DNA of 56,121 nt from Parcubacteria group bacterium (GTDB lineage Bacteria > Patescibacteriota > Minisyncoccia > UBA6257 > UBA11618): contig CALQZH010000003.1 in assembly GCA_943349395.1 (NCBI GenBank), positions 3,688 to 59,808 of the forward strand, in the 5' to 3' direction. The first letter of the stretch is position 1. Every line of letters starts with the position of its first letter. Below, piece by piece: positions 3,367-52,989 of the stretch. A program made the translations under genes and the position numbers. The notes below the pieces were generated by a model. The model was not told the DNA's origin, did no database searches, and saw nothing but the letters and a program-made list of their open reading frames with translations.

Positions 3367-4467
3367 ATGACCAAGATGATGATGGCCTTATGGACGGTTG
3401 TCGTGCTCGCGATTGCCGGAGGGATAGCCTATGCCGTGTATTCCCTTCCCCCGGCGCCTATCGCTCCCGTTTCCGCTGCGAATGTTCCGGTCGCGGCCAT
3501 TCCCGTTCCCGCGGCTCCCGCATTACCCCAGCCCGGAGCGCCTTCCGTCGTGACGAGCGCGAGCGTCATTCCTTCCGATTCGGCCGCGGTCGTTACGGGT
3601 GCTATTGATCCGAACGGCGCCTTCACGACATATTGGTACGAATACGGAACATCGCCCGATGCCGCTCTTCCCCTTTCGAGCCCGCGGCAGATGATAGGGT
3701 CCGGGTACGCTTCGACTCCGGCATTCGGCTATATCACCGGCCTTTCGAGCGGCGCTTCGTATTATTTCCGCCTCGTCGGCGAAAACCAATATGGCAGGGT
3801 TTCGGGCCTGCGATATCCGTTCCAAACGACGCGTGGCAATCCTCCTCCTGCAGGAAGCGTTCCTACGCCGCGGAGTTCGGCCGCAACCGGCATAACGAGG
3901 ACCGCCGCGACTCTCAATGGAACGGTGAATCCCAACAGGGCGTCGACCCAGTATTGGTTCGAGTACGGAACGACGCCTAGCCTGGGCAATGCTTCGGCGC
4001 TCGAGCAGGTCGGAGACGGATCGGCTCCTCGCGCGGTATCCGTCTCCCTTTCCGATCTCAATCCTTCTTCCGCGTATTATTTCCGTCTCAATGCCCAAAA
4101 CCAATTCGGGACCGCGAATGGCGCGATTCTGAGTTTCAAGACCGCGGGCTCTTCGGCCGCTGCCGATCCTTATGTCGTGACCGGGGCGATCTCGAGCATC
4201 GGCGCTTCTTCGGCCACGTTGCATGGCTCGGTCAATCCAAACGGCATGGAAACGTCGTATTGGTTCGAATATGCGCCGAATCCTCCTTTCGGCGTATCCC
4301 TTTCCGTTTCGACAGCGCGGCAGTCCATCGGTGCGGGAACGGCTGCGTTTCCCGTCGCGGCCAGCGTTTCCGGACTGAAGCCGAAGACGGGCTATTATGT
4401 CCGTTTGGTCGCGCAGGGCAGTTCAGGCATCGTGTACGGGGATCGGAAATCATTCAAGACGGATTAG
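3367..4467 (+). CDS. Membrane-anchored/secreted protein with three tandem ~95-aa repeat domains
   Basis: 366-aa ORF with an N-terminal hydrophobic anchor. Three repeats each contain NPNG..T.YW(Y/F)EYG and YY(F/V)RL motifs (Fn3/Ig-like beta domains by pattern). Confidence 0.85.
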   Translation: MTKMMMALWTVVVLAIAGGIAYAVYSLPPAPIAPVSAANVPVAAIPVPAAPALPQPGAPSVVTSASVIPSDSAAVVTGAIDPNGAFTTYWYEYGTSPDAALPLSSPRQMIGSGYASTPAFGYITGLSSGASYYFRLVGENQYGRVSGLRYPFQTTRGNPPPAGSVPTPRSSAATGITRTAATLNGTVNPNRASTQYWFEYGTTPSLGNASALEQVGDGSAPRAVSVSLSDLNPSSAYYFRLNAQNQFGTANGAILSFKTAGSSAAADPYVVTGAISSIGASSATLHGSVNPNGMETSYWFEYAPNPPFGVSLSVSTARQSIGAGTAAFPVAASVSGLKPKTGYYVRLVAQGSSGIVYGDRKSFKTD

Positions 4468-6585: not shown

Positions 6586-7020
6586 CCATATCACTCGCGG
6601 GGGCACGCGATAAGCCGGATTCTGTTCCGCCTTGCGGCGGATGGCGGCCATTTGTCTGAGCGGCACTCCCCCGACGCGCAGCGTCGGAAGCGCGAAATCC
6701 GATCCGCCAGCTGGCGGACGAGCTTCGTATTTCCGATGCTGCGCATCGGGGGCACGGCCTTGCACCCGAGCAAGGATTTAGCCGTTTCATCCCGATCTTC
6801 GACTATCGGGCATATCCTTCCGTTCCTTGCGGAACGGCGGGATCCCCCTCTCCTTTCGGATCGGGGCGTTTCTGTTCGCACCTCTCCGTTGCCGGCGACG
6901 GCCTTTCGACCGCTGCTTGTTGTTTGCCCTCCTTGCGGAAGGCAAGAGTGTCCGGACTTTCCTCCCGCTCCGCTTGCGCGGAACGAGCGGCCGTCTGGCG
7001 TACCCCCACGAGTGATATCG
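6586..7020 (-). ncRNA. rnpB: RNase P RNA (bacterial type A-like)
   Basis: The minus strand contains GGAGGAAAGUCCGGAC (P4/CR-I) and ACAGAAUCCGGCUUAUCG (CR-V). The 5'/3' ends pair (AUAUCACUCGUGGGGG with CCCCCGCGAGUGAUAU). No credible ORF is present in the region. Confidence 0.85.
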
Positions 7021-7061
7021 AAGCCATACACCAGCTTCTCGCTACCCGGAATATGACACGC

Positions 7062-7463
7062 CTATTTCCGGCTGTCGAGCGTTTCGTTCACGAGCGCGTC
7101 GGCCGCTGCATTTTCTTCTCGGGGGATCTCCACGAAACCGACTGCCTCGAAGTTCCTGATGAGCTCCCGCGCTTCCATGCAGAGCTTTCTCAAATGCTCC
7201 TGCTTGATCTTGTATTTGCCCGTTATCTGGCGCGCGATGAGCTGGCTGTCGATATGGATCTCGAGCGCCGTTTTTCCGGCGCCATCTCCCGCGATTTTCG
7301 CCGCGCTTTTCAGCGCCGAAATGACCGCCTTGTATTCGGCGACATTATTCGTCGTTTCGCCGATGTATTCGCCGTAGCCCGTGCCGTCTATCACGACGCC
7401 TATCGCCGCCGGTCCCGGATTCCCGCGAGCCCCTCCGTCCGTATGTATGGATATCGTGCGCAT
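7062..7463 (-). CDS. rnhA: Ribonuclease HI
   Basis: MRTISIHTDGGARGNPGPAAIG...NNVAEYKAV...NAAADALVN matches the RNase H type 1 catalytic motifs. Start chosen at the third in-frame start. Confidence 0.85.
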   Translation of the reverse strand: MRTISIHTDGGARGNPGPAAIGVVIDGTGYGEYIGETTNNVAEYKAVISALKSAAKIAGDGAGKTALEIHIDSQLIARQITGKYKIKQEHLRKLCMEARELIRNFEAVGFVEIPREENAAADALVNETLDSRK

Positions 7464-9393: not shown

Positions 9394-9681
9394 ATGGCCC
9401 ATACAAAATCCCTCGGATCCACCAAGCTTGGCAGGGATTCCGAGTCCAAGCGCTTAGGAGTCAAACGGAACCAGAACCAGATGGTCGGTCCCGGCGAAAT
9501 CATAATCCGCCAGCGCGGCAGCCATTATCTTGCCGGCACGAACGTCATGCGCGGCTCCGACGATACCTTGTATGCCAAGGTTGCGGGAACGGTCAATTTC
9601 ACGACCAAGAAGAAGATACGCTTCGACGGCTCGCGCCGCATGGCAAAGGTGGTCAGCGTAGTCGCTCCCGTCGCCGCATAG
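9394..9681 (+). CDS. rpmA: 50S ribosomal protein L27
   Basis: [24 protein letters not shown]...IIIRQRG is the L27 signature. ATG at 9394. Confidence 0.9.
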
Positions 9682-9763
9682 AACCTATCTCATAATCCCC
9701 TCGAACCGCGTTGCGAGGCGGCTGTGCCGCTATCGCGGCCGAGGAGATTATGAGAAAGGTTCT
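9680..9763. other. 84-nt extended hairpin immediately 3' of rpmA
   Basis: Arms AGAACCTATCTCATAATCCCCTCG and CGAGGAGATTATGAGAAAGGTTCT pair with 2 mismatches. They enclose nested CCGCG/CGCGG and GCGGC/GCCGC helices. Confidence 0.6.
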
Positions 9764-9799: not shown

Positions 9800-10222
9800 T
9801 CCTGTCGTACGTACCGTGAGGTTCGCTTCCACGCCGTGCGCGAAGTGCACGATCGCTGCATGGTCGCCGATCGTTCGGATCGGATGCTCGAGATCCACCC
9901 GCCGGATCTCCGGACATCCTTGTTCGCCGAGGGCTTTCGCTATGTCGTCTTTCGTTATCGAGTCGAATACCTCGCCATGCTTCCCGGTTTTCAAGAGCAT
10001 CACGAGCGGCTCCTTCATTATTTTTTTTGCCTCCGCTTCGAGGCGCGTGATGCCCGCCGCTTCGTCCTTCACACGCGCCGCGTGCTTCGCGAGCTCTCCT
10101 GGGGTCGCGGGAATCCCCAGCTTCTTGGGGAATAGGAAGTTCGAAGCGTAACCGTCGGATACGTTCACGAGGGCATTCTTCTTGCCTACGCCCTTGATAT
10201 CCTGCAGGAGCACTACTTTCAT
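9797..10222 (-). CDS. rplI: 50S ribosomal protein L9
   Basis: MKVVLLQDIKGVGKKNALVNVSDGYASNFLFPKKL is the L9 N-terminal signature. Confidence 0.9.
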   Translation of the reverse strand: MKVVLLQDIKGVGKKNALVNVSDGYASNFLFPKKLGIPATPGELAKHAARVKDEAAGITRLEAEAKKIMKEPLVMLLKTGKHGEVFDSITKDDIAKALGEQGCPEIRRVDLEHPIRTIGDHAAIVHFAHGVEANLTVRTTG

Positions 10223-11439
10223 AGCTTTGCGCGCACCAGTTCCAGGGCTTTTTCGAGCTGGGGGTCGCGTTTCTTTTCCCGATCCTCGTCCGAAATCTTC
10301 ACTGCCACGTCGGGAACGATGCCGTTCTTGTCTATCTGCGTACCTTTCGGAAGTATCCAGTGGGCTATGGTCAGTTTCAGCTCCGAGCCGTCCCTGAGCG
10401 TCGTGAGCTCCTGGACGGTTCCTTTGCCGAAGCTCTTCTCCCCGACTATCGGCGCCTTCACGTCGTCTTTCAGGGCTCCGGCAAGGATTTCGCTCGCTGA
10501 CGCGGAACCGGCGTTCATGAGTATCGCTATCGGCAGGCCTGCCACTATCGGCGTTCCTTCGGTTTCGAACGAGTCCTTCCTCCCGTTCCTGAATTCCTCG
10601 AATATTACCGTCTGGCCCGGATTCATGAAATAGCCGGCAATCGCTATCGCCGCATCGAGATATCCTCCCGGGTTATTGCGCATGTCGAGGACGATGCCTT
10701 TCGCGCCCGCCGCCTTCGCCTCGTAGAGGGCGTTTCTCATGAGCGCGGCGGAATTCTCGCTGAACGTGAAGAGCTGTATGTGGGCGACATTTCCCTCTTT
10801 CATTTTCCATTCGAGCACGGGTATCGCGATCGTATCCCTCGTGACGCGTATCGTCAGGGGCTTTTCCTTCCCGTTCCTGCCGACCGTGAAATTCACCGCC
10901 GTCCCTTTCGGCCCGCGTATCATCTTCACCGCGTCGTTGATCGCCAGGCCCGCGGTCGAGCTGGCATTGATCTCGAGCAGCTTGTCGCCGCTTATGAGCC
11001 CCGCTTTTTCTGCCGGCGAATCCTTGAGCGGCGCGATCACGATGAGCTGATCGTTCTTGATTCCGATTTCCGCCCCTATGCCGCCGAAATTCCCGTTCAA
11101 GTCTTCGGAGAAGCGCTTCGAGTCGTCGGGCGTCATGAAGACCGAGTAGGGGTCCTTGAGCGCGGCGACGAGGCCGCTTGTCGCGCCATAGGTGAGGTCG
11201 CGGTTCTTCAGCTGTCCCGCCCTCAGGTATGACCCTTCGATGCCTTTCCATGCGTCCCAGAATATCGCGAAATCTCCCGCGTTGACCGCGTCGCTTGCCG
11301 TATTCGCCACGCCCCGTATGACCACCGTCTTCGGATGAGCCGTGCCGATCCCGTATCCCATCACTCCTGATACGCTTATCGCGAGAATGATGATAATCGC
11401 CCGCGCGAAGCGCGGGCGCATGCCGTCCGAGTAATTCAT
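10219..11439 (-). CDS. Carboxy-terminal processing (S41) peptidase with PDZ domain
   Basis: GGIGAEIG...PAEKAGL (PDZ), DMRNNPGGYL and GSASASEILAGAL (S41 catalytic Ser region). Start set at MNYSDGMRPRFARAIIIIL before the TM anchor; the exact start is uncertain. Confidence 0.85.
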   Translation of the reverse strand: MNYSDGMRPRFARAIIIILAISVSGVMGYGIGTAHPKTVVIRGVANTASDAVNAGDFAIFWDAWKGIEGSYLRAGQLKNRDLTYGATSGLVAALKDPYSVFMTPDDSKRFSEDLNGNFGGIGAEIGIKNDQLIVIAPLKDSPAEKAGLISGDKLLEINASSTAGLAINDAVKMIRGPKGTAVNFTVGRNGKEKPLTIRVTRDTIAIPVLEWKMKEGNVAHIQLFTFSENSAALMRNALYEAKAAGAKGIVLDMRNNPGGYLDAAIAIAGYFMNPGQTVIFEEFRNGRKDSFETEGTPIVAGLPIAILMNAGSASASEILAGALKDDVKAPIVGEKSFGKGTVQELTTLRDGSELKLTIAHWILPKGTQIDKNGIVPDVAVKISDEDREKKRDPQLEKALELVRAKL

Positions 11440-28975: not shown

Positions 28976-29192
28976 ATTTAGAAAAACGCCTCAGGATCCC
29001 CTGTAAGGTTCCTGAGGCTCTCCCGACATTGCTTGCGGCAACCGAGAGTCTTGGTGGGGGCGTGCTTTGGAGGTTAGGAAGCTACGCAACAGCCAATTGC
29101 ATTAAAAATACGTATTATCTCGGCATTTGTCAATTATTTTTTCCTTCTAATCCCTTGATTATCTCGCCGTTTTCTTGTATGTTATATGGACT

Positions 29193-29768
29193 ATGTCGAC
29201 TCTCGGATACAATGATTTGCGGAAAGGGGTGGTATTCGACATCGACGGCGCGCCGTACGAGGTCGTCGAATACGCCTTCGTCCGCATGCAGCAGCGCAAA
29301 GCCGTGGCGCAGGTGAAGATGAAGAATCTCATGACCGGGAAGGTCGTGAGTCGCAACTTCCACCAGAATGAGAGCTTCGAGGCTGCTGACATGGAACGCG
29401 AGACCATCAAGTTCCTCTACCGCGCGAAGGGCGACTCGTGGTTCTCCGAGAAGAACGATCCGAGCAAGCGCTTCTCCGTCTCCGAGGAAGTGGTAGGTAC
29501 TGCGGGGAATTTCCTGAAGCAGAATACCGACGTCAGTGCTGTTTTCTTCAATGAGAAAATCATCAAGATCGAGGTGCCGATCAAGGTGGATCTCATGGTG
29601 AAGGACGCGCCTCCGGGCGAGCGCGGCAATACCGCCCAAGGCGGCATGAAGCTCGCGGAGCTCGAGACTGGCGCGAAGGTGAACGTCCCGCTTTTCGTGA
29701 ACACCGGCGACGTGGTGCGGATCAATACGGATACGGGAGAGTATACGGAGCGCGTAGAGAAGAATTAA
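29193..29768 (+). CDS. efp: Elongation factor P
   Basis: MSTLGYNDLRKGVVFDIDGAPYEVVE...VPLFVNTGDVVRINT. ATG at 29193 inside the TTG-started ORF. Confidence 0.9.
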   Translation: MSTLGYNDLRKGVVFDIDGAPYEVVEYAFVRMQQRKAVAQVKMKNLMTGKVVSRNFHQNESFEAADMERETIKFLYRAKGDSWFSEKNDPSKRFSVSEEVVGTAGNFLKQNTDVSAVFFNEKIIKIEVPIKVDLMVKDAPPGERGNTAQGGMKLAELETGAKVNVPLFVNTGDVVRINTDTGEYTERVEKN

Positions 29769-29775
29769 GCTTTCT

Positions 29776-29982
29776 AGGATTCCGTTCCACGATTCCCGAA
29801 TGCGCACGGCTCATATGCCCGCGAATCGCCGTTCGAATAAGCCGACAGGAAAAACGGAACTCAACCGCGGCTGCGCGCCGCGGGATTCAGACAGCCTTTT
29901 TTCCCCTCGGCTTATCTCTCATGGCTCGTCGCGGCATCCCATTCGCCTCAGCGATGTTCGGTAATCATCGAAACGGAATCCT
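29776..29982. ncRNA. Unclassified structured RNA-like element, copy A
   Basis: Shares identical blocks with 47790-47972 and folds into five nested helices (see findings). No conserved ORF. Confidence 0.6.
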
Positions 29983-37853: not shown

Positions 37854-38399
37854 ATGTCTTTATCCAAGCTTTTCGTATTTAATTGGTGTCCCGCATCGCT
37901 TTTTCTTTTAGCGGGCGTTATCGGCATGGGAATCAATGCCGATATTTATTACGATGTTCTTCAGGATATACAATTTGCGAGTCTTATATTTTTTCCAGCA
38001 GGAGTTATCGGTGCCTGGTTTTGGGGGTATAAATGGTTTCGACAGTTTTCCATTATTATCTTTTCGGCGATTCTCATAGCCTTTTTGAATTATAGGTATG
38101 AGTATCTATATTATTCTCTTTCTCTCGTTATTTTAGCAGTTATGATTTTCGGTATTTTTGACAAAGAAAATCCCTATCTATACAGGAGTCTTTTTAGAAA
38201 TATAAGCTTCCCGTGCATTCTTTTATGGCTCTATATGGCGTATTCGTCTTATGTCGGATGTTTCGGCGGTGGTGCATGTGAGTCCCCCGCTCTTTTGATC
38301 CCCATTTTCTTTTTATTGTTTTGGATTGCCTTGGGATTTATCGTTTGGGCTGTCAAAGCCGCCATCTTTTCCTTAAAAAGAGATGCTTCGGTGATATAA
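37854..38399 (+). CDS. Low-GC polytopic membrane protein, unknown family
   Basis: 181-aa ORF with 5-6 hydrophobic helices, in a markedly AT-rich segment between lexA and the tRNA cluster. Confidence 0.6.
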   Translation: MSLSKLFVFNWCPASLFLLAGVIGMGINADIYYDVLQDIQFASLIFFPAGVIGAWFWGYKWFRQFSIIIFSAILIAFLNYRYEYLYYSLSLVILAVMIFGIFDKENPYLYRSLFRNISFPCILLWLYMAYSSYVGCFGGGACESPALLIPIFFLLFWIALGFIVWAVKAAIFSLKRDASVI

Positions 38400-38429: not shown

Positions 38430-38502
38430 AGCCCTCAGCGGGAGTCGAACCCGCGACCCCTATCTTACCAAGATAGCGCTCTGCCGACTGAGCTATGAGA
38501 GC
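38430..38502 (-). tRNA. tRNA-Thr (anticodon GGT)
   Basis: Acceptor GCTCTCA/TGAGGGC, anticodon arm CTATC-TTGGTAA-GATAG, T arm CGGGT region with TTCGACT loop. Confidence 0.85.
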
Positions 38503-38504
38503 AC

Positions 38505-38577
38505 AGCTCTTAAGAGGAGTTGAACCTCACCCCCGCCGTTACCAGTGACGGTGCTCTTCCATTAAGCTATTAAGAGC
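38505..38577 (-). tRNA. tRNA-Thr-like (anticodon GGT by best hand fold), atypical
   Basis: Acceptor GCTCTTA/TAAGAGC and T loop TTCAACT. The anticodon loop reads CTGGTAA only with an A-C mismatch closing the stem and a 4-nt variable loop. The alternative register gives an 8-nt loop. Confidence 0.55.
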
Positions 38578-44436: not shown

Positions 44437-45834
44437 ATGGCTCTCCGTATCTTAGACACCCTTTCCGGCGAACAGAAGCCTTTGCGGAAATCGAAAAAAG
44501 CGGTGAAGATGTTCGTGTGCGGCCCGACCGTCTACGGCCCCGCGCATATCGGCCATGCGCGCGTCGAGGCAGTATTCGACTCGTTCGCGCGGCATATGCG
44601 CGATTCCGGCTATGTCTTGTCGTACGTGCAGAACATAACCGACGTTGACGATAAGATCATCGATGCCGCACGCGAAGCGGGCATCACTCCCCAGGCGCTC
44701 GCGCGCCGCTATGAGAAGGAGTACCTCGCGGACATGAAAGCGCTCCGCATTGTGTCTGTCGACCGGCGCGCGCGGGCGAGCGATTTCATTCTAGATATCC
44801 AAGGGCAGATCGCGCGTCTCATGAAAAAGGGCTTTGCCTATCGTACATCGTCGGGTGTGTATTTCGAGGTGCGGAAATTCAAGCCGTACGGGGCCCTGTC
44901 GAAGCAGGATCTCGATGCCGTGCGTCCCGGATGGCGCATCGAGCCGGATGCCGAAAAGAAAGACCATCTCGATTTCGCGCTCTGGAAGAATTCCGTCGCT
45001 TTGGACGAGGTCGGCTGGCCGTCGCCGTGGGGTCGGGGCAGGCCCGGATGGCATATTGAGGATACGGCGATTACCGAGAAGCTCCTCGGCCAGCAGTACG
45101 ATATCCATGGCGGCGGGAACGACTAGAAGTTTCCCCACCACGAGTCCGAAATCGCCCAGCAGGAAGCGGCATCCGGCAAAACGCCGTTCGTCATGGCGTG
45201 GATGCACGTCGGTTTTCTCTCGATCGGCGGCGCTAAGATGTCGAAGAGCCTGCACAACTCCATAGAGATATCGGAATTCCTCGAGAAGCATTCTGTGAAT
45301 GCGATACGCCTCATGTTCATGAGTGCACATTACCGTTCGCCTATCAACTACACCGAGCGGCTCATGGAGCAGGCCGCATCCGCGATAGCCTCGATTGCTG
45401 GCGCGCTTGCGCGGCTCGACCTCGTTGCCCTCCGCGGAACCGCGATCGAGCTTGTTCCGCGCAAGGTCGTTCTATGGCTTGTGCCTCACGAGAAAGCGTT
45501 CAGGGAGGCTATGGACGACGATTTCAATACGCCTGCGGCGCTCGCTTCCCTCTTTTCCTTCATGAGCTCGTGCGAGGCGCGCATGTGGCAGATGAGCCGG
45601 GGCGAGGCCCATGCGGCGCGGCATTTCCTTGTGAAGCGTCTCGCGCTTTTCGGCATCATCGTGAAGAATCCGCCTATTCCCGTCCTCGTGCGCGGCATCG
45701 CGAAGCGCCGGGAGACGCTCCGCACGAAAAAGGACTTCGTCGGCGCCGACCGCGCGCGGCGCGAGATCGAGGTCGCCGGTTATTCCCTCGAAGACACCCC
45801 GCTCGGGCCGCTTATCTTCCCTAACGTCGCTTAA
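44437..45834 (+). pseudogene. cysS: Cysteinyl-tRNA synthetase interrupted by one in-frame TAG (45124-45126)
   Basis: ORFs 44437-45126 and 45193-45834 are in the same frame. Read-through gives DIHGGGND*KFPHHESEIAQ, which is the conserved GGxDLxFPHHE motif with the stop at the Leu position. HIGH (AHIGH) and KMSKS are present. Confidence 0.8.
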
Positions 45835-45845
45835 CCTTTTACTCC

Positions 45846-47201
45846 GTGCCAACGACGCTCAAAGTAACTCCCCAGAACATAGAGGCAGAGGAATCCGTCC
45901 TCGGCGCCATCATGATCGATCGCGACGCGATCGTTAAGGTGACGGACATCCTGACCGCCCGCGATTTCTACGTGCCCGCCCACGGCCTTATTTACGAAGC
46001 CATGGTCAAGCTCTTCGAGAAGCATGAGCCGATCGACATCGTGACGATGGCGAACCGCTTGAAAGAGGATGGCACGCTCGAGCGCGCCGGCGGCGCGACG
46101 TACCTCTCGACGCTCGTCGAGCGTGTGCCTTCGTCCTCGCATATCGTCCATTATGCGGAGCTCGTGAAGGAGAAGAACGTCCTCCGGAGCATCATCACGG
46201 CCGCGGCCGAGATGACCGAGGCGGCATTCAACCCCCAGGAGGAGGCGGACGACATATTGGATGCGGCCGAGCAGAGGATATTCTCCATATCCCAGGGGTC
46301 CGTGCGCCAGAAATTCGTCGCGGTGAAGGACGAGCTCCAGAACGCCTACGAGCGCATCGAGCGGCTCCACCGCGGCGAGGGAACATTGCGGGGCGTAGGT
46401 ACGGGCTTCCCCGACCTCGACAATTGCCTGTCGGGCCTCCAGAAGTCCGACCTCGTGATCATCGGCGCGCGGCCGTCGCTCGGAAAGACCACGTTCGCGC
46501 TCGACATCGCCCGGCACGCGGCGATACGCGAGGGCTTCCCCGTCGGCATATTCTCCCTCGAAATGTCTCGCGAGCAGGTCATCGACCGCCTGATCGCCGC
46601 GGAAAGCCAGGTTCCCTTGTGGAAGCTGCGCACGGGGCGCCTGCAGGACGATATGGACTTCCAGATGGTCCAGGCGGGCCTCGACGTGCTCTCGAAGGCG
46701 CCTATATATATCGATGACGCCGCGAGCCCCACCATACTCCAAATGAAGTCCATGGCGCGCAGGCTCCAGATGGAGCATGGCCTTGGCCTCATCGTCGTCG
46801 ACTATCTCCAGCTCATCCAGCCGCGCATCGGCGGCGACAATACCGTCGCGCAGATCACGGAGATCTCGCGCGGATTGAAGGCGCTTGCGCGCGAGTTGAA
46901 CGTCCCGGTCGTCGCCTTGTCCCAGCTCTCGCGCGAAGTCGACAAGCGCGAAGTGAAGGTGCCGCGCCTGTCCGACCTCCGCGATTCGGGCTCGATCGAG
47001 CAGGACGCGGACGTCGTCATGTTTATCTATCGCAAGGATCGCGACAAGCTGAATCCCGACCCCGAGGAGATGAATAGCGCGGAGATCATCGTCGCGAAGC
47101 ACCGCAACGGCCCCTTGACCGTCGCCAAGGTCAAGTTCGACTCCGAGAAGGTCAGCTTCAGGAGCATCGACGAGGTGCATACCAACAACAGCCCCTTCTA
47201 G
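45846..47201 (+). CDS. dnaB: Replicative DNA helicase DnaB
   Basis: PQNIEAEESVLGAIM N-terminal domain, Walker A GARPSLGKTT. 451 aa, GTG start. Confidence 0.95.
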   Translation: MPTTLKVTPQNIEAEESVLGAIMIDRDAIVKVTDILTARDFYVPAHGLIYEAMVKLFEKHEPIDIVTMANRLKEDGTLERAGGATYLSTLVERVPSSSHIVHYAELVKEKNVLRSIITAAAEMTEAAFNPQEEADDILDAAEQRIFSISQGSVRQKFVAVKDELQNAYERIERLHRGEGTLRGVGTGFPDLDNCLSGLQKSDLVIIGARPSLGKTTFALDIARHAAIREGFPVGIFSLEMSREQVIDRLIAAESQVPLWKLRTGRLQDDMDFQMVQAGLDVLSKAPIYIDDAASPTILQMKSMARRLQMEHGLGLIVVDYLQLIQPRIGGDNTVAQITEISRGLKALARELNVPVVALSQLSREVDKREVKVPRLSDLRDSGSIEQDADVVMFIYRKDRDKLNPDPEEMNSAEIIVAKHRNGPLTVAKVKFDSEKVSFRSIDEVHTNNSPF

Positions 47202-47773
47202 TGCTTCCCCGCCCCATCCAGAGGTTCATAGACGCGTTTTCCGCCTTGCCGGCGATCGGGCCGCGGCAGGCTATGCGTCTCGCGTTCCACCTGATCGGCC
47301 TCGGCGAGAATTCGATTGCCGAGATCGCCGCGGCTGCCGCCGGGCTTTCCGCGCTCCGCATATGTCCCGACTGCTTCTTCTTTTCCGACGGGGCATGTTC
47401 GCTCTGCACGGATGCGCGGCGCGCGCGGAAGATCCTTGCGGTCGTCGAGCGGCCTACGGACGTTCTCGCCATCGAGAAGACCAAGAAGTTCGACGGGACG
47501 TACCTCGTGCTCGGCGAGATGCGGAAGACCGGCGGTTTCGCTCCCGACCAGAAGCTGAAGCTCGCCCGGGCGCGGGAGCGCGGCCCGTTCGATGAGGTGA
47601 TCCTGGCGTTCGACCAGACGACGTATGCCGATTTCGGCGCGTCGGCCGTCATGAAGGAATTGGAAGGCGTTACGAAGAAAGTGACCCGGCTTGGGCGGGG
47701 CATTCCCACGGGCGGGGAGATAGAATTTGCAGACGAGGATACGCTCGGCGGCGCATTGCGGAACAGGAGCTAG
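47201..47773 (+). CDS. recR: Recombination protein RecR
   Basis: HhH (LPAIGPRQAMRLAFHL), C4 zinc finger (CPDC...CSLC) and Toprim domain. GTG start overlapping the dnaB stop. Confidence 0.9.
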   Translation: MLPRPIQRFIDAFSALPAIGPRQAMRLAFHLIGLGENSIAEIAAAAAGLSALRICPDCFFFSDGACSLCTDARRARKILAVVERPTDVLAIEKTKKFDGTYLVLGEMRKTGGFAPDQKLKLARARERGPFDEVILAFDQTTYADFGASAVMKELEGVTKKVTRLGRGIPTGGEIEFADEDTLGGALRNRS

Positions 47774-47789: not shown

Positions 47790-47972
47790 ATCGCCCCTCT
47801 CGAATGCGCACGGCTCATATGGCCACTCTCGCCATTCGTCCGGGATTTCTCGAAAAAGAGAACTCAACCGCAGCGTGGCTGCGGGATTCATACATCTCTT
47901 TTTCTTCGGTCCCGTTCCTCATGGCTCGGCGGACCATCTCATTCGCCGTAGCTATATTCTCGCGCGGGCGAT
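47790..47972. ncRNA. Unclassified structured RNA-like element, copy B
   Basis: Homologous to 29776-29982 with compensatory changes in helices P1, P3, P4 and P5 (see findings). Confidence 0.6.
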
Positions 47973-48043
47973 TACAACCTTCTTTTCCAGCCAGCTTCCT
48001 ATTTCTCTTGCACCGCCTCGCTCAGGGTTTCTCAATGAAAACG

Positions 48044-48067
48044 AAAAAGGGGCTGGTGCCCCTTTTC
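48044..48067. terminator. Bidirectional intrinsic terminator (recR side / rplU)
   Basis: AAAAGGGG-CTGGTG-CCCCTTTT. Confidence 0.75.
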
Positions 48068-48379
48068 CTATTTGATCGCGGTTATTTCGACTTCGGTGAA
48101 TTCCTGGCGGTGTCCCTTCTTCTTCTTGTAGCGGGTTTTCGAGTGGTAGCGGAAGACGATGATCTTCTTTGCCCTGCCTTGCTTCACGAGCTTCGCTTCC
48201 ACCGAGGCGCCCGGGACGAGCGGCTCGCCGATCATGAACGTTTCGCCGTCCGCCTTCATGAGCACGTCGGAGAACACGACAGAACCGTCCTCTTTGGGGG
48301 CTATCTTCTCGATCTTGAGCGTTTGGCCGGGTTCCACGCGATATTGCTTGCCGCCGGTGCGGATGATTGCGAATGCCAT
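48068..48379 (-). CDS. rplU: 50S ribosomal protein L21
   Basis: MAFAIIRTGGKQYRVEPGQ...HSKTRYKKKKGHRQ. Confidence 0.9.
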   Translation of the reverse strand: MAFAIIRTGGKQYRVEPGQTLKIEKIAPKEDGSVVFSDVLMKADGETFMIGEPLVPGASVEAKLVKQGRAKKIIVFRYHSKTRYKKKKGHRQEFTEVEITAIK

Positions 48380-52084: not shown

Positions 52085-52118
52085 GCGGGACGGATCATCA
52101 TGGATCAAAAGACATAGA

Positions 52119-52157
52119 GCGTCGTACCGGGCTTCCCGCCCGTACGCCGCTTTTTTT
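52119..52157 (+). terminator. Intrinsic terminator of paralog 1
   Basis: GCGTCGTAC-N14-GTACGCCGC followed by TTTTTTT. Confidence 0.7.
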
Positions 52158-52167
52158 ACGCCGTATC

Positions 52168-52196
52168 TTGCATAATTACTAGTATCGTGGCATACT
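52168..52196 (+). promoter_or_regulatory. Promoter of paralog 2
   Basis: TTGCAT-17 nt-CATACT, preceded by TG (extended -10). Confidence 0.5.
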
Positions 52197-52251
52197 ATCC
52201 GCGGTTTCTCCTGGCATTCCCCTCCCTCTCGAATCACAGGAAATTGACATT

Positions 52252-52830: not shown

Positions 52831-52864
52831 CCAGCCAATCGTTCGTTTCGAAACGGATTTCAAG

Positions 52865-52900
52865 CGTCGTATCAGGCTTCGGCCGCGTACGGCGTTTTTT
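52865..52900 (+). terminator. Intrinsic terminator of paralog 2
   Basis: CGTCGTA-N15-TACGGCG followed by TTTTTT. Homologous to the paralog 1 terminator. Confidence 0.65.
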
Positions 52901-52912
52901 CTTTAGCATGCC

Positions 52913-52941
52913 TTGCATTATTCAAATTATCGTGGCATGCT
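52913..52941 (+). promoter_or_regulatory. Promoter of paralog 3
   Basis: TTGCAT-17 nt-CATGCT. The same TATCGTGGCAT spacer end as the paralog 2 promoter. Confidence 0.5.
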
Positions 52942-52989
52942 ATGCGCAGCGTTTCCTATCCCGTTTCTCTTTTGACTAGGATATTTGAC

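Follow-up and report, generated by a model that had tools for sequence, protein, structure and literature searches.

Patescibacteria have tiny genomes with little non-coding DNA, and to our knowledge almost no lineage-specific structured RNAs have been described for them. What, then, is the long imperfect palindrome that lies between the convergent genes recR and rplU in the 56-kb stretch of Parcubacteria DNA analysed here (henceforth the window), and which of its strands is the functional one? About 45 base pairs and three internal loops of this element are kept while the rest turns over, which means that something in the cell must recognise it. The identity of that partner could reveal a new RNP, a new layer of regulation next to the stress regulons of hrcA and lexA, or a hitherto unseen mode of hairpin spread.

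An imperfect rod behind recR and efp

The element occurs behind recR (copy B) and again behind efp (copy A). The features of the two loci are, in window coordinates:

47201–47773, plus strand: recR, from its translation; homologues carry RecR Pfam domains
47790–47972: the complete rod of element copy B, both P1 arms included, beginning 17 nt past the recR stop codon
47801–47960: conserved core module, P2 to P2', the homologous part among copies; scores 129 bits with covariance model R1
47973–48044: pyrimidine-rich spacer of 72 nt from P1 to the terminator, 61% identical to the spacer of the relative L004
48045–48066: bidirectional intrinsic terminator, common to recR (plus strand) and rplU (minus strand)
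48068–48379, minus strand: rplU (ribosomal protein L21), convergent with recR; Pfam Ribosomal_L21p in syntenic relatives
29175–29768: efp
29776–29982: element copy A, beginning 7 nt past the efp stop codon
30030–30068: terminator downstream of copy A

A scan with model R1 (filters off) finds exactly two copies in the window, and the ORFs adjoining them are recR, rplU, efp and a TraG-like gene. Aligned with each other, copies A and B show a mean column identity of 77% that is concentrated in five blocks identical between them (CGAATGCGCACGGCTCATATG, GAACTCAACCGC, GCGGGATTCA, CTCATGGCTCG and CATTCGCC), while the helix sequences differ. This conservation is not protein coding, because indels put the reading frames through A and B out of register; a coding reading was rejected, the ORFs through the two copies lying in different frames and neither strand holding a conserved small ORF.

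All the helices that a first-pass annotation of this DNA had named in copy B are present where it placed them, and copy A has equivalents of other sequence. Together with the helices and loops added here, the fold of copy B, from the outside inwards, is:

47790–47796 with 47966–47972: P1, ATCGCCC with GGGCGAT, the outer stem, locus-specific and different in every copy
47802–47806 with 47955–47959: P2, a helix beyond those named earlier
47810–47814 with 47945–47949: Px, also beyond those named earlier
47815–47818 opposite 47938–47944: loop A, TCAT opposite CTCATTC
47819–47824 with 47931–47937: P5, ATGGCC with GG(A)CCAT
47825–47840 opposite 47915–47930: central internal loop, containing Pc
47831–47835 with 47921–47925: Pc, a short helix inside the central loop, GCCAT with ATGGC
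47841–47847 with 47908–47914: P3a, CGGGA(TT) with (GG)TCCCG
47852–47860 with 47896–47904: P3b, GAAAAAGAG with CTCTTTTTC
47861–47867 opposite 47885–47895: loop C, AACTCAA opposite GATTCATACAT, enclosing P4 (region 47861–47895)
47868–47884: P4 hairpin, CCGCAGC-GTG-GCTGCGG

Since all helices are nested, in the order P1, P2, Px, P5, Pc, P3a, P3b and P4, the element is one long imperfect rod with three internal loops (A, central and C) and not a multi-way junction. The central loop has 10–13 nt on each side and holds a helix of 2–5 bp (Pc), and the terminal stem ranges from 2 to about 20 bp among members of the family. Elements are 160–235 nt long, a typical copy measuring ~180 nt and its core module ~160 nt. 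Both window copies, on both strands, fold far better than shuffled sequence (z of −4.7 to −7.7).

Family members, covariation and turnover of sites

Whether other genomes carry further copies was a question that the first-pass annotation had raised. Syntenic contigs and a three-block pattern run over 185,579 species genomes were searched for members, and five more are found in four other Patescibacteria genomes, bringing the family to at least seven copies in five genomes of two clades:

L004, 10585–10800: member L004a, at the same recR/rplU site as copy B
L004, 800–995: member L004b, flanked by the lexA promoter region and a tRNA-cluster terminator
L010, 2825–3040, minus strand: member on an 805-kb chromosome of the other clade, adjoining the hrcA promoter and CIRCE operator
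L016, 318–554: divergent member with a 22-bp P1, downstream of dnaJ
L021, 9619–9809: seventh member, found via an HrcA search, directly upstream of the hrcA promoter and CIRCE operator

Homologues of RecR and EF-P assign the window to Patescibacteria, and no exact match to its RecR is on record. The genome closest to that of the window is Candidatus Harrisonbacteria nzgw434 (RecR 94% and EF-P 97% identical); recR and rplU DNA is 87% identical with the closest relative, and third codon positions are 69–70% identical. Two degenerate relatives of the element lie in L006. Among GTDB representatives the strict three-block pattern matched only two species, at one or two places per genome, and viral contigs gave no match to three patterns. 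Three JGI metagenome matches to an exact two-block pattern were rejected as chance, two of them lying in coding DNA, and matches from a genome scan in Bacteroidetes (L011 and L012) are coding sequence and not family members.

Two further observations concern the surroundings of members. In L016 the 3' tail of the element (TATATGCGCCTGCACTTCGCTTTAG, at 508–533) recurs at 660–685, about 150 nt downstream, which suggests a partial second copy in tandem. In L022 a branched rod ~130 nt long, at 9800–9955, stands upstream of the hrcA promoter and CIRCE, the same position as that of the L010 and L021 copies; its hrcA-sense strand carries UGAG/CGAG and UGAGCG/CGCGAA tandem G·A modules, and model R1 misses it.

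Model R1 was built from copy B, L004a and L004b on a hand-made nested structure. Copy A, which was left out, scores 96 bits, and the members in L016, L010 and L021 score 52, 43 and 29 bits; members overall span 29–174 bits. The next best score in the window is ~13 bits (filters off), and nothing besides the members scores higher in about 225 kb searched. In the seven-member alignment, 88.6% of pair cells are standard, as against 68.0% after shuffling and 39–48% in slid controls, in which the partner is shifted by 1–3 columns. Pairs that change on both sides number 33 of 45, and none of 500 shuffles reaches any of five covariation measures with seven members (a six-member version was also run). 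One instance is the loop C pair A47865–T47889, which is A-U in copies A and B, L010 and L021 and G-C in L004a, L004b and L016. These values come from only seven related sequences in an alignment fitted to the model, and despite this the fold is real; the conserved fold with compensatory changes that had been claimed from copies A and B beats the shuffles and the slid controls alike. Selection keeps the pairing and the three internal loops while the helix sequences drift.

The unpaired junction strands had also been called invariant. They are identical in copies A and B, but other genomes carry CATGCGGCTCAT, ACTCGACC, GGGACTCA and CTCGTCGTTTCG, which limits the invariance to this genome. That the two copies are not the product of a recent duplication agrees with the first-pass annotation. 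Recent duplication, or a chance palindrome free of structural constraint, would fit the presence of only two copies in the window and the failure of exact block patterns to find a copy in viral or JGI metagenome collections. We regard it as already refuted and hardly credible, given helices that have diverged almost fully around identical loops in A and B, members in five genomes of two clades, covariation above all controls, and the fold z-scores.

The sites themselves are gained and lost. The efp site is empty in L018 and L019, and a relative with an empty efp site has a 97%-identical EF-P; the recR site is empty in four relatives (L013–L017, with RecR 66–74% identical), whose recR–rplU interval holds the terminator and nothing else. 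A given site can do without the element. The lexA/tRNA position is a variable site as well, because L004 carries L004b exactly where the window has an AT-rich ORF of 181 aa (37854–38399, plus strand, between lexA and the terminator of the tRNA cluster). Two genomes of the L010 clade (L010 and L021) share the position just upstream of the hrcA promoter. The expectation that copies always come after gene 3' ends does not hold: it is borne out at the recR and efp sites alone, and four other copies sit beside divergent lexA or hrcA promoters.

Core modules are more alike within a genome (88% between L004a and L004b, 73% between copies A and B) than across genomes at the same recR site (64% between copy B and L004a). 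Homology ends inside P1; no two copies share a related P1, though each of these stems is a good one of 7–22 bp, and neither direct repeats nor conserved ends were found flanking the copies, P1 and the flanks being unrelated in all of them. Because copies are few (two to three per genome), alike within a genome and placed at hairpin-prone sites, we infer that the family spreads and is homogenised by duplication or gene conversion of the core into places that form, or are able to form, hairpins.

Some empty sites hold traces of outer stems. At 10577–10590 of L018, in the empty efp site, stands CGGAATCCT, which equals the 3' arm of the P1 of copy A. The empty recR sites of L016 (about 10075–10105) and L017 (about 4063–4090) contain ATCGGCC/GGCCGAT and ATCGCTCCG/CGGAGCGAT, which resemble the P1 of copy B. 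Local sequence may be the source of the outer stem, a thought that we offer as a lead rather than a result. The narrower idea that P1 is the ancestral recR terminator stem was rejected: it resembles the L016 and L017 stems, but the terminator of the window is still at the ancestral position.

Other features of these contigs deserve mention in their own right. The cysS gene of the window (44437–45834, plus strand) has one in-frame stop inside the conserved GGGND-L-KFPHHE motif, where relatives are intact at 463–466 aa; possible causes are a nonsense mutation, a sequencing error and recoding. In L004 the gap of 373 nt between an hrcA-like gene and cysS (6857–7230) has no copy of the element and apparently contains a small ORF that was not called. 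Two tandem tRNA-Thr(GGT) genes (window 38430–38577, minus strand) lie within a cluster of four or five tRNA genes. A direct repeat of 95 nt (window 52118–52212 and 52863–52957, 72% identical, TTGCAT...TATCGTGGCATACTAT after a T-run) has the look of a promoter or leader region that was duplicated.

The functional strand and competing readings

Covariation alone cannot tell the functional strand, whereas the composition of unpaired positions can. When the two arms of the rod are aligned with scoring symmetric for both strands, the plus-strand oppositions are C·U 55, C·C 21, A·C 21, G·U 21, U·U 13, A·G 10, A·A 6 and G·G 1. Wobble pairs do not separate the strands, because G·U and A·C are equally frequent in this alignment. 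Helix Pc of copy A speaks against the minus strand, in that its plus-strand G·U turns into an A·C there. The non-Watson-Crick positions are ~75% C or U on the plus strand, and across eight elements there are 17 tandem GA/AG modules on the minus strand and 0 on the plus strand. Read on the minus strand, loop A is CGAA/UGAG, the central loop is UGAG/CGAA with a second G·A pair, and loop C is UGAR/YGAG, beside which stands the covarying loop C pair. In copy B, loop A then reads GAAT/ATGA: a tandem G·A stacks on Px, and next come two Watson-Crick pairs and a bulge of 3 nt. The central loop reads GAGGAA/GACGA, two tandem G·A pairs. The minus-strand terminal loops of L004a (GCGA) and L004b (GUAA) are both GNRA, and the tip in L010 is GAGC-GGA-GCGA. 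All six members tested fold to a lower minimum free energy on the minus strand, by 5–13 kcal/mol. We lean towards the minus strand as the functional one. The earlier reading of the junctions on the plus strand was right in that the blocks are constrained; on that strand, though, they are pyrimidine-rich, and it is on the minus strand that they form tandem sheared G·A.

Transcription bears on both strands. Through the window copies it is assured on the plus strand, because recR and efp have no terminator ahead of the element and the sole terminator comes after it. For the minus strand, every locus has the terminator of the upstream gene ahead of the element. A scan for sigma-70-type promoters on both strands at all loci found none. 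The replication strand could not be read from skew, which is too weak and does not switch within the window.

Our favoured explanation, which we put forward tentatively, is a minus-strand RNA rod with tandem G·A docking modules that is recognised by protein and belongs to a family whose core duplicates. A core module of ~160 nt folds into the rod P2-Px-P5-Pc-P3a-P3b-P4, closed at each locus by a different P1, and the selected single strand would be the minus strand, most likely as RNA; the same element acting as single-stranded DNA is less likely. With 5'-YGAR-3' on both of its sides, each conserved loop would make up one tandem sheared G·A module on this strand, and a number of the terminal loops are of the GNRA or GNA type. 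Modelled in this way, the element would be an almost uninterrupted rod bearing three copies of one docking module, and its role would most likely be that of a protein-recognised scaffold. Copies occupy hairpin-prone intergenic spots beside terminators and hrcA or lexA promoters.

The first-pass annotation had offered a ligand-binding, catalytic or protein-binding RNA. The constrained unpaired blocks agree with a functional RNA of this sort, but the element is a single rod with no junction pocket, and nothing points to a ligand or to catalysis. Copies lie after stop codons or upstream of promoters with all helices nested in one rod, which does not answer to a riboswitch, and no known self-cleaving ribozyme class matches; a riboswitch or ribozyme is unlikely because position, architecture and model searches all argue against it.

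That the plus-strand RNA is the functional one seems to us rather doubtful. It would be a rod in the 3' UTR of recR or efp that ends at the shared terminator, with open pyrimidine-rich loops (CUCAU, AUUC, CCUC) that bind a single-stranded-RNA-binding protein or pair with Shine-Dalgarno-like purine sites, and it may be released as a 3'UTR-derived small RNA. Its location is in keeping with this: at recR (in the window and in L004) and at efp the element begins 7–19 nt past a same-strand stop codon, and a terminator follows 36–71 nt later with none between. CCUC-type motifs, which are anti-Shine-Dalgarno-like, recur in the central loop of most members, and in L016 a promoter-like TTGTGT-N16-TATACT, seen by eye and under the scan threshold, ends 5 nt before P1. 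The model-fitted alignment has 20 G·U, which work only on the plus strand, to 10 A·C, and this alignment is biased towards the plus strand. However, four of the seven copies have no same-strand gene upstream, and no plus-strand promoter was found at the loci scanned. Tandem U·C/C·U oppositions are no known stable RNA motif, whereas their complement is one; structured RNAs seldom have C-rich unpaired regions such as the plus strand would have; this strand folds less stably in all six members; and loops locked in a rigid rod would probably make poor seeds for target pairing. A role at the level of DNA, which we think unlikely, is nevertheless a serious rival because genomes gain and lose copies and the outer stem is specific to each locus. 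The element would be a single-stranded DNA hairpin for a recombinase or transposase encoded elsewhere, like attC or REP/RAYT, would move or be copied into the loops of existing hairpins, and would fold as RNA only incidentally. Such a role would account for filled and empty sites among relatives, for the greater likeness of copies within a genome than of same-site copies in different genomes, and for a homologous unit that lacks P1 and yet is always flanked by a local inverted repeat of 7–22 bp. It also fits the P1 arm of copy A (CGGAATCCT) at the empty efp site of L018, the resemblance of the P1 of copy B to the terminator stems of L016 and L017, and a terminal stem of 2 to about 20 bp, comparable to the variable terminal structure of attC. 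A single-strand substrate needs strand asymmetry, and DNA too stabilises tandem sheared G·A in the 5'-YGAR-3' context. Against a DNA-level role, the genes called up to 10 kb from the copies with listed neighbours include no recombinase, transposase, HUH-family enzyme or reverse transcriptase, conserved termini, target-site duplications and attC core boxes are absent from copies A and B, and the copy number is very low; moreover, the loops are conserved between distantly related clades, and L010 and L021 have kept their copy at the same place upstream of hrcA.

Far less probable than either is a 6S-type RNA of this clade, whose central loop would mimic an open promoter and sequester RNA polymerase, with two paralogues as in Bacillus. 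The size and proportions agree, with a closing stem, 10–13 nt per side in the central loop, and internal loops in the terminal stem, as do two copies per genome, and no 6S gene was detected elsewhere in the window. But none of 4227 Rfam models, RF00013 included, matches stretches of 270–400 nt even at E<=10; the loci come and go among relatives, and degenerate copies exist; inside the central loop there is a helix of 2–5 bp, and G·A pairs close this loop when the minus strand is read; and an own promoter was not found. To return to the minus-strand rod, its boldest form would be a new rod RNP RNA, or single-stranded hairpin, that is specific to Paceibacteria-type Patescibacteria, bears three G·A modules, runs antisense to the recR and efp mRNAs and has a core that nests in the loops of existing hairpins. 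As a whole we consider this combination somewhat improbable, and we know of no element for which hairpin-in-hairpin dispersal, with a core nesting in the loops of terminators or operator-like palindromes, has been described.

Comparison with known systems

At gathering thresholds, a scan of the whole window with Rfam 15 returns tRNAs only, and scans of copies A and B, L004b and L021 at E<=10 on both strands return sub-threshold noise only (Guanidine-III at 13.8 bits; C/D-box and miRNA models). No description of such an RNA in Patescibacteria was found in the literature searched. Judged from these comparisons, the element appears to be an undescribed hairpin-rod family of candidate-phyla bacteria. 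Two candidate origins were rejected: ARAGORN and Rfam find nothing at the GGGAYTCA and ACTCRACC blocks that would make them tRNA- or tmRNA-like, and the GGA motifs are too few and mostly paired for a CsrA sponge. No reverse transcriptase, DEDD recombinase or TnpB/IscB adjoins the copies in the gene tables, as would a retron msr-msd, an IS110 bridge RNA or an IS605 omega RNA.

Tandem sheared G·A pairs are known from C/D-box K-turns and from 5'-YGAR-3' duplexes, and the minus-strand loops of the element, 5'-(U/C)GA(A/G)-3' opposite the same and flanked by Watson-Crick or G·U pairs, resemble them. In a K-turn, however, the 3-nt bulge adjoins the G·A pairs, whereas the bulge of loop A is two pairs away; a K-turn reading of the loops was rejected, the G·A pairs being flanked by paired positions on both sides and the bulge misplaced. 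As an observation apart, C/D-box sRNA models match the minus-sense strand of L021 at 9603–9689 (plus-strand coordinates; UGAUGA ... CUGA) far below their gathering scores. UGAUGA is found in L021 only among members, and we know of no C/D RNPs in bacteria.

Like 6S RNA (RF00013 and its relatives), the element is rod-like and ~180–200 nt long; both have an internal loop in the centre between the closing and the terminal stem, and two paralogues per genome are possible in both. It differs in matching no model, in having loci that are unstable among relatives, and in a small central loop that is G·A-closed on one strand. Copies A and B lie between a stop codon and an mRNA terminator, as do bacterial 3'UTR-derived small RNAs, but most other copies lie outside 3' UTRs and the element has no obvious single-stranded seed.

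With integron attC sites the element shares a folded single-strand structure conserved over sequence, unpaired bases that set the strand used, a terminal structure of variable length and a position just after gene 3' ends. It is longer than attC (160–235 nt) and has conserved internal loops of defined sequence. Of the attC core boxes R''/R' (RYYYAAC/GTTRRRY), neither copy A nor copy B has a GTTRRRY at its 3' end or close to it, and in the loci with gene tables neither an integron integrase nor a cassette array was called up to 10 kb away. The neighbours of the copies are housekeeping: recR, rplU, efp, the TraG-like gene, lexA, tRNAs and hrcA.

There is a parallel in habit with REP/BIME, the ERIC elements of enterobacteria, the Correia elements of Neisseria and the Rickettsia palindromic elements, which are likewise intergenic imperfect palindromes co-transcribed with their neighbours. 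Elements of the REP/ERIC/Correia type, like this one, often lie between convergent genes or after 3' ends, beside terminators, and have no promoter or terminator of their own; their sites are filled or empty by strain, and mismatches make their strands differ. No RAYT-type or other transposase gene was seen near the copies of the element, and a comparison with REP, ERIC and MITE elements found neither conserved terminal sequences or inverted repeats nor many copies similar over their full length. The REP/ERIC/Correia type is marked by high copy number, full-length similarity and conserved ends, whereas the element has two to three copies per genome and outer stems that are unrelated among copies. 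Unlike the REP-type families, it has helices that are fully turned over, and three internal loops conserved across clades.
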